Below, one piece after another: positions 408 to 21,836 of a stretch of 64,000 nt of DNA. A program made the position numbers and the translations under genes. Position 1 is the stretch's first letter. Every line of letters begins with the position of its first letter. Origin of the DNA: Oceanispirochaeta sp. (GTDB lineage Bacteria > Spirochaetota > Spirochaetia > DSM-2461). The notes below the pieces were generated by a model, which was not told the origin of the DNA, made no database searches, and saw only the letters and a program-made list of their open reading frames with translations. Location: NCBI GenBank assembly GCA_963666275.2, contig CAXXOA010000002.1, forward strand, positions 672,001 through 736,000, given 5' to 3'.

Positions 408-896
408 ATGGGCCGTCATAAACTACCCTACAAAATGAAGAAGCCAAACCAGCATCACAGGTATTCGGGAGAAAAAGCAGCAGAGCTGCCACCTTAACGA
501 ACAAAGACACTTCGGACTTCGGTCCGGTGTCTTTATTGGCGATACGTCTTATCAACTGATCCACACAGATCAGAAATATCAACGAAAACCAAAGTAAAAT
601 ATGAAGCAGGGAGGATAGCCAAAGAAGCGTATCAGTTATCCATTCAGGAAGCAGATAAAGTCATTTCATTTGCAGAATACAGCGAAGACTTCTTTACTGA
701 CAAATGCAAACTGACTTTAAGACGACAGGCTTCCAACAAACCGATATCACCAGAGATTCTGAAAGCCAAAAGAGGGCAACTGCTGAATCATCTGCAACCT
801 CAGTTTGGTGATCTTCCTCTGAATGAAATTACCCAGGTGATGTATGAAGACTGGAGGATGGGTATCGATTCAGGCTTCCCTGATTATATTGCATAA
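408..896 (+). pseudogene. tyrosine recombinase/integrase N-terminal part, interrupted by a 72-bp insertion and 3'-truncated
   Basis: AAGGAG RBS 394-399 and ATG 408. Manual translation without 466-537: MGRHKLPYKMKKPNQHHRYWRYVLSTDPHRSEISTKTKVKYEAGRIA...ISFAEYSEDFF...LLNHLQPQFGDLPLNEITQVMYEDW, resembling integrase arm/core-binding (SAM-like) regions. No catalytic domain before TAA 894-896. Confidence 0.7.
462..537. mobile_element. miniature double-hairpin insertion element, copy 1 (68 bp, 466-533, between TATT direct repeats)
   Basis: Near-identical to 1627-1703; TATT at 462-465 and 534-537; interrupts the integrase ORF. Confidence 0.7.
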
Positions 897-1055
897 GAGC
901 TGTTATGACATACACAAGCTTACTTCTTATGAAGTACAAATTCTGATCATTAGCTGGAAGGGTCGCAGAAATAGAGCAAAAAACTCCTGCTGCAATGAAT
1001 TGAATCAACGATTTTCACTGTTTCCAAAAGGCACACATAGTGTTATGATAAGAAT

Positions 1056-1331
1056 ATGGATAAGTTCTTCAACTGGAATGATGAGAAGAATGCTCTATTG
1101 ATCAAAGAACGGAATATTTCGTTTGAGGAAGTCGTTTTCTGTATTCAAAATGGTGGGATCCTTGATGATGTAGCGCATGCCAATCAGGAGAAATATCCCA
1201 ATCAGAGGATTTTTAGCGTCTTGATTGATGACTATGTGTATTTAGTCCCTTATGTTGAAAACGATGATGAAATCTTCCTGAAGACTATAATTCCGAGCAG
1301 GAAGGCGAAAAAAGAATATCTTGGAGGGTAA
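1056..1331 (+). CDS. BrnT-like type II toxin
   Basis: FNWNDEKN..L.KERNISFEEV...YVYLVPYVE..EIFLKTIIPSRKA pattern; paired with downstream antitoxin. Confidence 0.8.
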   Translation: MDKFFNWNDEKNALLIKERNISFEEVVFCIQNGGILDDVAHANQEKYPNQRIFSVLIDDYVYLVPYVENDDEIFLKTIIPSRKAKKEYLGG

Positions 1332-1333
1332 GC

Positions 1334-1615
1334 ATGGAACTCGATGATTATGAAAAAGAAATACTCGAAGATTATGAATCTGGTAAGCTAAAATCCTCAG
1401 GGATTTGCGATACTGAAAAAGAGCGGTTCTCTGAAATAGCCGCAAATACTCTTAAAAAAAATAGACGGGTGAATATCCGATTGTCTGAGCATGATCTCCA
1501 GGCTATTCAGAGGAAAGCAGTTCAGGAAGGGTTGCCCTATCAGACATTAATTTCCAGTTTGATTCATAAATACACGAATGGATTGCTTGTTGATAAGTCA
1601 AAAGTGGCTGGTTAA
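1334..1615 (+). CDS. CopG/RHH-type antitoxin
   Basis: C-terminal RVNIRLSEHDL..IQRKA..EGLPYQTLISSLIHKY; 2 bp after the toxin; GGAGG RBS. Confidence 0.8.
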   Translation: MELDDYEKEILEDYESGKLKSSGICDTEKERFSEIAANTLKKNRRVNIRLSEHDLQAIQRKAVQEGLPYQTLISSLIHKYTNGLLVDKSKVAG

Positions 1616-1626
1616 TCTGACGCCAG

Positions 1627-1703
1627 TATTCGGAAGAAATAGCGGTGAAACCGCCACCTTAACGAACAAAGACACTTCGGACAAAAGGTCCGGTGTCTTT
1701 ATT
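1627..1703. mobile_element. miniature double-hairpin insertion element, copy 2 (69 bp, 1631-1699, between TATT direct repeats)
   Basis: Same element as 462-537 with compensatory stem changes; TATT at 1627-1630 and 1700-1703. Confidence 0.65.
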
Positions 1704-18739: not shown

Positions 18740-20361
18740 ATGAGGCACTGTTTAAATAAATACAGATCCAGCGCAGCAGGTCTGTTTATTGTCCTGTTCA
18801 TTCTTGTTTTCGGGGGGGGAGGATTCACAAGCTGTACAAATCCAGTAGACGATCAATTAAGCGAAACATCGGATATAACATCAAATGATTCTTCAAGTAA
18901 TACATCAAATCCTGAAGCATTATCCTGCAGCGCAGGGAGTGATCAGGATGCGGGACTCGGTACTGTCTCGCTGACCGGTTCAGTCAGTAATGCCGGAGAT
19001 GATGTTACCTATTCCTGGAGAGCCTCCGATAGCAATCCCTCAACGGTTTCCTTAGCTGACAGCACTTCATCCTCTGCCAGTTTTGATGTTTCATGCGATC
19101 TTGATGAGGGAGAGTATGAGTTTATCCTGACAGTTAGCGACGGAACTGCAACGGCAAATGATTCTGTGATTGTATCAGTCAATTATGTGGACAAAATGAT
19201 CGCCTATGACGGTGCAACTAAGGACTACTACAGCCTTTCAATAAGCCTTTCCCCTGACGGGACAACTGCACTTATCGGGGCTCCATATGATAACGACATG
19301 GGTACCTATTCCGGTTCCGCCTATATCTATACCTGTAATGACTCCGGCTGGAGTCTGGCTGCAAAGGTGACAGCTACAGATGGGGAAGCCTATGATTACT
19401 TCGGACGTTCAGTCAGTCTGTCCTCTGATGGTTCTACGGCTCTCATCGGAGCCCCCGGTCGTACGGATATCAATAGTGATGATGACAGTGCATCTTCCGG
19501 TTCCGCATACATATTTACCCGCAGCGGCTCAGGCTGGAGCCAGGCCGCAGAGCTTACAGCAGAAGATGGAGCTGCCTCTGATTGTTTCGGCAGAGCTGTC
19601 TCTCTCTCCTCAGACGGGTCTTCAGCCCTTATTGGAGCATCCAAGGATGACGACAACGGGGCGACCTCCGGTTCTGCCTATATCTTTTCTGGAAGCGGGT
19701 CCAGCTGGAGTCAGGAAAAAAACTGATAGCCTCTGATGGAGCTGAATTAGACATGTTTGGACGGTCGGTCTGCCTTTCTGCCGATGGTTCAACTGCTTTA
19801 ATCGGAGTTCCTGGTGACGATGACAATGGTGCTAACTCCGGCTCTGCTTATATCTATACCGGCAGTGGTTCCAGTTGGGATGAAAAAGCAAAGTTGACCG
19901 GTTCTGAAGGAGATTCCTATGTCACTTTTGGGAATGATGTCAGTCTTTCTTCAGATGGAACTTATGCTCTTGTCGGGGCTCCTAATAATGGCAAAGGTGC
20001 AGCTTACTTCTTTGCCTCTGACGGCTCCGGTTGGAGTCAAGAGGCCAAGATTATATCCTCTGATATCGAAACCAATGATTTACTGGGATTTTCCGTAAGT
20101 CTTTCCTCTGATGGAAAAACAGCGCTTATTGGAGCGTACGGGAATGATGACGATGGTCAATGCTCCGGTTCTGCTTATCTTTTTACCCGCAGTGGCTCCA
20201 GTTGGAGTGAAAAAATGAAACTGACTGCCCCTGATGCCGAAGCAAATGATTATTTTGGAAATACAGTGAGTCTGTCCGCTGATGGGACCGAAGCACTTGT
20301 CGGGGCATATCTGGATGATGACAATGGTCTGAGCTCCGGATCGGCATATTTTTTTTATTGA
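18740..20361 (+). pseudogene. lipoprotein with PKD/Ig-like domain and seven FG-GAP repeats; split by a frameshift in an A7 run (19716-19722)
   Basis: Repeats FG.SVSLS.DG.TALIGA...SGSAYIF in both ORFs (3+4); one extra A joins them. Confidence 0.8.
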
Positions 20362-21213: not shown

Positions 21214-21836
21214 ACCATCAGCTGCCTGCTTCTAAAAAGAGATTGACATCAGTTTTCCGAAGAAATAACAGTAAAACCAAATCTCCGAAGAACAATGACG
21301 CTTCAGACATTCCTCGGGAGTCTTTTAATATGACTATGGGAAAAGAGTTTATTTTTAGCATTCAAAAGGGAGTGTGATATAGTAAGGGCAAAATACCTTC
21401 AGAGCTGGAGGACTGGCAGATGAAACTACATGTGAAAAAAAACGGGGAATATTCCCTATACCAGGCCACAGGATCCGAACGGTACTTTTCCCTTTGGTCA
21501 ATTCGAATCTGGCTATGTCCATCAAAAACGAGAAAGCCGGATACAGGATTAAAGGCAGGACCATGAGTCAGTTTCTCCTAAAATCTAATAATCTACCTAT
21601 ATACCTGGTATTTCAACCTTTTGAAATAAAAAAAATCCCCCTCGATATCTGATTATGAAGCCGGCGAGTTGAGTCGGCGGGGCCTGTTTTGCAGATGGAC
21701 ATCCTCCGCCATTTGGAAAGATATCTTAGCTCTGTTTTCTTTTAGTTAATATTTGTTCTCCAATTATTTGATTTTTCCTTTTTAATCTCTAAGAATTTTA
21801 AAAAACAATCCGCTGTTTAAACTTGTATATCTGTGA

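Follow-up and report, generated by a model that had tools for sequence, protein, structure and literature searches.

Two hairpin-bearing units near the start of the window (the whole 64-kb stretch analyzed, G000 C2:672001-736000) are confirmed as real insertions, of 72 and 73 nt. Both represent the short form within a family of gene-less elements of 45 to 130 nt that carry one to three covarying hairpins and no terminal inverted repeats (TIRs). The family is almost certainly mobile. Literature searches found no description of the element and Rfam gave no match at the gathering or E-value level, and as far as these searches reach the family seems to be previously undescribed. An earlier interpretation made from the window alone (the sequence-only reading) had called the copies a non-autonomous, target-selective, TIR-less inserted unit. 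Those attributes held, but the GTATTG target and the target duplication that came with them did not. The mechanism that we favor, at a probability of roughly 35%, is the exchange of a folded single-stranded circle at ATT by a tyrosine recombinase acting in trans.

Two short-form copies in the window

The source genome of the window, G000, is 5.27 Mb in size, and copies 1 and 2 were the sole matches when it was searched by BLASTN. The copies, their parts, and the host genes around them are given for the + strand. Copy 1 occupies positions 466 to 537, including its own terminal TATT (534 to 537), and follows a TATT of the host (462 to 465) that is the target core; the uninserted paralogues read TACT and TTCT here. 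It scored 91 bits against a covariance model for which it was itself among the building sequences. Within it lie hairpin B (477 to 489; 5 bp with a 3-nt loop), which covaries family-wide, a conserved CGAACA (498 to 503), and hairpin C (504 to 533), with a TT bulge and a C(TTCG)G tip. The predicted partner of CGAACA is either the right core (A503:T534, with a C x A mismatch) or the left-junction sequence TATTCG. Copy 2, identified by BLASTN, the covariance model, and empty-site comparison, spans 1631 to 1703 next to a target core at 1627 to 1630. Its hairpin B is at 1642 to 1654, CGAACA at 1663 to 1668, hairpin C at 1669 to 1699, and its own TATT at 1700 to 1703.

The coordinates and sequences first assigned to the two copies proved correct on re-reading. 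Direct inspection likewise bore out the claims that the stem of hairpin B differs between them by two compensatory changes and that hairpin C differs in its loop only, the TT bulge being kept in both. Over 57 nt, the two match at 86% of positions. Each has a fold z-score of about -5.1, with 0 of 200 shuffles equally stable, and both score as terminator-like on either strand. A possible third short-form copy, heavily decayed, lies at 21253 to 21328 (63% over 57 nt; model score of 22 bits, E of 0.012); its fold z-score of +0.7 corresponds to no stable fold.

A BrnT-like toxin and CopG-like antitoxin pair (1056 to 1615) lies between the copies. We rejected a composite transposon carrying this pair as cargo, as neither copy accompanies the paralogous module at C2:652590. 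TGACGCC repeats at 1618 to 1624 and 1703 to 1709 bracket the copy 2 target and have the look of arm-type integrase sites belonging to a decayed tRNA island. Repeat pairs of this type also were noted next to tRNA-end remnants at G000 C2:640963, 653405, 623549, 2211842, and 2251697, and the element inserted at such decayed-island sites independently in G000 and in G012. The window is itself a decayed island; three IS66-like elements plus an IS3-like element (labels from translations) lie directly upstream at L001:3976-10942. Elsewhere in the window, at 19244 to 20349, there are tandem coding repeats of 156 to 186 nt that resemble FG-GAP beta-propeller repeats; the reading frame seems to shift ahead of the ORF at 19753.

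The copies are insertions

The sequence-only reading held that removal of copy 1 plus one TATT restores an open integrase frame. This is borne out by an uninterrupted paralogue at G000 C2:652012, which encodes HRYWRY within a 134-amino-acid frame. The codon at its insertion point is TAC (in TACT), and because of this codon the paralogue has no TATT target. A second paralogue, at C2:647219, also is uninterrupted at the copy 1 point and reads TTCT where the filled allele has TATT. Contigs in read data that skip copy 1 turned out to be these uninterrupted paralogues; no junction of a circle was seen in these contigs, which does not bear on whether circles form. The claim of an interrupted integrase gene requires qualification: the frame is split by copy 1, but the host gene (408 to 896) is just an N-terminal integrase fragment, with a weak match to Phage_int_SAM_3 (E of 3e-4, below the cut-off).

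For copy 2, a natural empty site was found. Its flank recurs at G000 C2:640963 with a single TATT. A contig from a second organism (run X4) carries copy 2 at the same site, at about 94% identity, and the copy is therefore not brand new. The comparison of filled and empty sites that had been proposed as a check thus succeeded within G000 for both copies (paralogues without an interruption in the case of copy 1, a natural empty site in that of copy 2), and it extended to pairs between genomes: one site is filled in G012 and empty in G000, and another is filled in G025 and empty in G021 and G017. Among the 5' ends of 10 group II introns, a longer relative of the element was present in three, six were empty, and one was deleted across the site. 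A MarR-like pseudogene near G000 C2:1.94 Mb carries two tandem-dimer insertions, one at GATT and the other at TATT, that are missing from its intact paralogue. Presence and absence at identical sites and the interruption of coding frames speak against an origin of the unit as an ordinary terminator or host regulatory RNA.

Forms, structure, and range of the family

Covariance models were built from seven copies for the short form and 11 for the long form. The two-hairpin form originally described is correct for the window copies but not for the family, in which the majority of copies have the long, three-hairpin form of 100 to 130 nt: a TATTCG left junction, hairpin A, hairpin B, CGAACA, hairpin C, and TTATT. 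The short form (about 70 nt), to which the window copies belong, lacks hairpin A, and a minimal form of about 45 nt is a deletion form that keeps the left end, one hairpin, and the right end. Hairpins A and C have a common tip, often GNAGC-TT-GCTNC. When the stems were compared in an unfitted alignment of the seven short copies, 10 of 20 pairs showed two-sided change, and 0 of 500 shuffles scored as high; in a model-fitted alignment of 54 copies the figure was 27 of 30 pairs, with 87% paired versus 73%. The structure is kept while the sequence drifts freely. Template-switch correction of hairpins can also generate stem covariation, so part of this signal may arise without selection.

With the models at E of 0.001, members were found in nine of 38 genomes of the bacterial family, in three genera, including all four genomes of genus g3. 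The highest count in one genome was 47 model hits at E of 0.5, in G025; these figures are lower bounds, with 22 to 150 candidates scored per genome. Outside the family, 150 genomes of the class gave single weak hits in two, one of which is probably spurious. A GTDB record of a Spirochaetaceae bacterium holds exact members. An exact 21-mer search of GTDB gave no hits, and a gapped-pattern search gave three loci, one of them a chance match within a coding frame. The gapped pattern found five loci in metagenomes, one a true member. Viral sequence searches returned no loci and then three, all nonmembers, and a plasmid search found no members. A loose pattern matched in 20 of the 401 genomes of the class, no more often than controls except in G000 and G025, and a strict pattern matched in one of 401 phylum genomes. 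The range of the element is narrow.

The copies lie mostly between genes, in either orientation, and frequently abut stop codons of the AATAA type or fall in T-rich terminator tails. At 61 sites the flanking genes were both antisense to the element in 24, both sense in 12, mixed in 17, and unknown in eight. Tandem arrays occur at about nine sites, their units identical in some and diverged in others, and several sites retain remnants of deleted tandem units. Five sister copies cluster near G000 C2:1.94 Mb. Active group II introns carry copies in the sense orientation. Loop motifs are biased to the top strand (GCTTGC, 25 top versus five bottom; G-T 75 versus A-C 58). By replication strand, 26 copies are leading and 18 lagging (P = 0.29), with weak calls in G025, where only eight were confident (4:4); opposite orientations on one contig were seen twice.

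Target and ends

The reported target, GTATTG, is correct for the two window sites; for the family, the target is (T)ATT. Tabulation of the flanks, another check that had been proposed, gave TATT as the left 4-mer in 40 of 48 copies (background, 0.8%), a proportion biased upward by models built on TATT-ended copies; on the right, TATT was found in 26 and CATT in seven. Where an empty allele is available in G000, at five sites, ATT is what stays constant in the target, and a GATT target site carries TATT on its right side.

The flanking TATT sequences had been read as a target duplication. This interpretation was not upheld: the core on the right is part of the element itself and pairs internally. 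The last base of GAAC[A/G] and the first base of the right core form A:T in 36 copies, G:C in eight, G:T in three, and A:C in one (Fisher P = 4e-6), although the copies are kin, their counts are not independent events, and the G:C label needs four tree changes, with a single origin possible. Watson-Crick pairs were found in 45 of 53 copies, compared with 32 in shuffles. No covariation was found between GAAC[A/G] and the left core (37 of 54 versus 38 in shuffles), and all 11 GAACG copies have a left TATT, while eight of the 11 end in CA. The covariation on the right, the absence of a link to the left, and the TATT site of all 11 G copies together argue that the right core is the element's own and that there is no target duplication. 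Covariation at the seventh pair of the junction is weak (27 of 46 versus 21; P = 0.02).

The core lies 1 nt from the hairpin C stem and pairs antiparallel. The prediction is that it forms part of a duplex where hairpin C begins, together with a C x A mismatch that hardly varies (40 of 53 copies), which would place the junction inside a fold-back duplex, as in an integron attC site. In a circle, the duplex would continue through the left end by pairing of CGAACA with TATTCG.

Two other accounts of the ends were considered and rejected. At two G025 sites, 15 to 22 nt of the left flank seemed to be duplicated as the 3' arm of hairpin C, as if the stem were target derived (snap-back synthesis). 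At C240, the orthologous empty sites in G021 and G017 lack this stretch, which is therefore a remnant of a deleted tandem copy; the stretch at C53 is probably the same. Over 46 copies, similarity of the left flank to the 3' arm was slight (P = 0.02 at 8 nt) and was driven by two tandem remnants. A group I intron-like reading of the bottom-strand wobble would, on paper reasoning, not restore the empty site.

Search for a mobilizer

No mobilizer was found in the window, in agreement with the sequence-only reading, and no gene-carrying version, such as a long copy around a transposase, was found in G000. Y1_Tnp occurs in eight of 38 family genomes and TnpB in one, a noncarrier. The search for a parent IS with the same ends, which covered G000, TnpB in the 38 genomes, and 14 Y1 loci, in genomes that are incomplete, found none. 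Y2_Tnp was present in one of five genomes, and IS110 hits were present; no match of the element ends to a resident IS91 or IS110 element was seen, and the only model hit near these loci was 1.2 kb off and beyond an IS3 remnant. Among 27 enzyme loci, one had an element copy nearby, with no link. Profile searches for RVT_1 and GIY-YIG revealed nothing specific to the element. Rep_trans was found in 0 of 38 family genomes, as was Viral_Rep, for which the positive control also gave no signal. The 220 ORFs beside copies contained no recurrent mobility gene; the Pfam scan of neighbors covered 56 small ORFs of 100, plus five window ORFs.

IntI, the integron integrase, was found in six of nine carrier genomes and 19 of 29 noncarriers. 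It was not found in three carriers, one of them a single-contig genome.

A proposed folded single-strand model for mobility

Of the routes offered by the sequence-only reading, recombination at a short core fits best, with a shared core of ATT and a right core that is the element's own and base paired. We consider a folded single-strand intermediate with a paired core to be rather probable. In the complete mechanism that we favor, the element would move as a folded single-stranded DNA circle, the junction of which would form the short duplex CGAACA/TATTCG with its C x A mismatch. A tyrosine recombinase supplied in trans would exchange this junction with a chromosomal ATT, and the single-strand exchange would be resolved by replication, as for integron attC sites. 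The regenerated TATT could then take a further insertion, giving tandems.

Chemistry of the IntI/attC kind is suggested by the core in a fold-back duplex, the 3-nt target, the tolerance of stem sequence, the arrays, and the lack of a clear replication bias. This reading is weakened by the core (ATT, against the GWT target of IntI), the absence of attC signatures, the failure of IntI to track carriers, and the top-strand loop motifs; attC recombines on its bottom strand. IntI has been described as inserting folded attC cassettes at genomic GWT without strand, replication, or transcription bias (bioRxiv 10.1101/2022.09.11.507474).

A passenger of the PATE or REPIN type would be moved by an HUH transposase, be it IS200/IS605 TnpA, RAYT, or some relative of these. 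The enzyme would cleave both ends just 3' of TTAT/TATT and paste a single-stranded DNA circle. Such an enzyme would suit the lack of TIRs and of duplication, the fixed tetranucleotide, and the right tetranucleotide inside the element, features described for IS608 (PMC5934647, PMC3201880). It also would suit the likeness of long-form hairpins A and C, which resemble paired subterminal palindromes, the ends and single hairpin retained in 45-nt deletion forms, and the favored top-strand folding. The HUH mobilizer put forward by the sequence-only reading nevertheless is unsupported so far: Y1_Tnp was found in 0 of four genomes of the copy-rich genus (87 to 99% complete), TnpB is missing from all carriers, none of the 14 Y1 loci has an element end, and the seven G000 Y1 genes are flanked by another repeat, GGGACGGAGG. 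The geometry also differs, in that a single nucleotide separates the core from the stem and its pairing is antiparallel, whereas the right cleavage site of IS608 is 10 nt from the hairpin foot with out-of-register guide pairing, according to PMC3201880 and PMC5934647. A guide of the IS608 type, AANA for TTAT, was ruled out by the antiparallel covariation. No clear lagging-strand bias, as such a passenger should show, emerged from the weak strand calls given above. We regard this route as rather doubtful.

Insertion through RNA appears unlikely as well. Here a small structured RNA would be reverse transcribed by a group II intron-type reverse transcriptase (RT) and inserted at a short ATT microhomology; an RNA-mediated route has reportedly been proposed for cyanobacterial SDR repeats. 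The top strand has CUUG- and UUCG-type loops, but this argument is weakened by the fact that CTTG loops are stable in DNA as well. Copies lie in sense orientation inside active group II introns and sister copies cluster locally (in the window and near C2:1.94 Mb), yet flanking genes at the 61 sites show no sense bias, and the ends are precise, with neither a truncation series nor added bases. RT genes occur in four of five carriers tested; G021, with six to seven copies, had no RT hit, and the sole RT of copy-rich G025 is internally deleted. Still less probable is a process without a dedicated enzyme, in which slippage, template switching, or repair copies the hairpin unit between TATT microhomologies. 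The identical tandem units, the deleted-unit remnants, and the lack of a partner gene among the 220 neighboring ORFs are consistent with it, and it would explain tandem gain and loss, but not precise dispersal to dozens of unrelated loci, the fixed left junction TATTCG, or the conserved paired core. That the units are ordinary, immobile terminators or host regulatory RNAs can hardly be maintained. The terminator-like scores of both window copies and the intergenic position of most family copies speak for such a role, and a secondary one is possible; a terminator origin is refuted by the empty sites, and the interrupted frames, both orientations, and arrays also oppose it.

Other short insertions and repeats in the carrier genomes

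G000 has a chromosomal integron (C1:1,032,000-1,064,700, with IntI at C1:1063760), and the observation extends to C2:1,176,000 and C3:187,000-276,000. Its cassette array is interspersed with some ten group II introns that are almost identical to one another. They lie on the other strand from the cassettes and are inserted at TTG|TTA, which is the core of attC sites as read on the bottom strand. Another family of mini-insertions, 42 nt long (CTGGTCGYAAAC...GTTTRC), occurs at CCGG-like cores and is polymorphic among intron copies. Its loci are G000 C1:1038216, 1038729, 1043079, and 1060374; G000 C3:187708, 188443, 191625, 269915, 270023, and 273933; and L161 and L225. It lies in frame in the RT gene, where it adds 14 residues; G025 has it too, and in G021 it occurs within an IS91-like gene. 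A third insertion, a hairpin of 24 nt net, was seen in intron domain I at C1:1038175 and C3:269874, and its GCGAGTCACGCAGC recurs in a cassette behind tmRNA at C1:1548460.

Cassettes linked to tRNA or tmRNA (G000 C1:1548460 [-], L103, and L090) start with the T-loop region in inverted copy, and the tRNA 3' end is repeated at their far side. They hold AACGAACA or GAACA before a stem, as does the TATT family, and at L103 and L090 a TATT-family copy directly precedes the cassette. The seven Y1 genes of G000 (RAYT/TIRYT-like; L033-L039 in G000, listed together with L152-L158) are flanked by inverted, often repeated GGGACGGAGG motifs, and in some TATT-family copies of G003 and G017 the tip of hairpin C is a head-to-head GGGACGGAGG pair. 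A stand-alone small GIY-YIG gene (G000 C1:1676300-1677300) has tandem CTGAGCGAAGTCGAAG-type repeats unrelated to the TATT family. A site occupied by a TATT-family copy in G010 holds, in G000, a different repeat of about 250 nt that is built of ATCGCG/CGCGAT units (C1:2383091-2383342).

A broader and rather speculative suggestion, which we doubt more than we believe, is that such units are attachment-site-only parasites: minimal folded single-stranded DNA circles with only their own recombination site, served by a borrowed host recombinase or an undescribed kind of enzyme. Spirochaetes would then harbor several families of this build, among them the TATT family, the 42-nt CCGG-like family, and the tRNA-targeting cassette with AACGAACA. 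If so, one enzyme would write short structured DNA into 3- to 4-nt targets without duplication.

Comparison with known systems

How tiny TIR-less hairpin repeats (SDRs, CGTC REPs, and Rickettsia palindromes) spread in bacteria is a long-standing question. With its exact ends, filled and empty alleles within a genome, 45-nt minimal forms, and covarying junction pair, the TATT family offers a ready substrate and a pairing rule for enzyme tests. If a recombinase inserts so short a folded donor at a 3- to 4-nt target without duplication, this would be a compact insertion chemistry of practical interest; otherwise, the family is one more selfish repeat family with a narrow range.

The element resembles integron attC x attG recombination in its predicted folded strand with a 3-nt core in a duplex, kept structure, short target, and head-to-tail arrays; on the weak strand calls, no clear replication bias was seen. 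The core of attC is AAC/GTT and its target GWT, whereas the element has ATT and (T)ATT. Sites of the attC type have L boxes and conserved extrahelical bases on the bottom strand; in the element the position and identity of the bulge vary, and there is no conserved L box or extrahelical G/T. Unlike an integron cassette, it has the extra hairpins A and B, is gene-less, and lies outside the integron array except inside introns, and IntI does not track with it. The single resident attC recovered by our scan was canonical and unlike the element.

PATEs and IS608 share with it the lack of TIRs and of duplication, a tetranucleotide target, subterminal hairpins, and an internal right tetranucleotide, but no parent IS was found in the search described above, and TnpA and TnpB are missing from the main carriers. 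REP/REPIN-RAYT systems, GTAG and CGTC REPs, and Ssn motifs are likewise small, multicopy, mostly intergenic, tandem hairpins; the element differs in having no GTAG or CGTC tag, in not flanking RAYT or GIY-YIG genes, and in being a defined unit with a fixed target. Kinship with Ssn or CGTC repeats was rejected (PMC11893778, PMC3733652, and PMC6006769): the SRM search pattern published in PMC11893778 matched 0 of 61 copies exactly, and with two mismatches it matched six and four, compared with 4.1 and 2.3 in shuffles. For CGTC REPs no transposase is known, according to PMC3733652. MITEs of DDE elements are gene-less, multicopy, and structured and have empty sites (PMC3184786), as does the family described here, which lacks their TIRs and target duplication.

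Nostoc SDRs (Elhai and colleagues, 2008) and Rickettsia palindromic elements are similar in being very small, structured mobile repeats with short targets and nesting. The element is larger (45 to 130 nt, against 21 to 27 nt) and differs in sequence, target, and phylum. SDR5 is placed at HIP1 sites in PMC5861425. By analogy, we would consider the Nostoc SDRs closest in spirit. In its behavior the element combines traits of a PATE with those of an attC cassette devoid of genes, but it lacks defining features of each.
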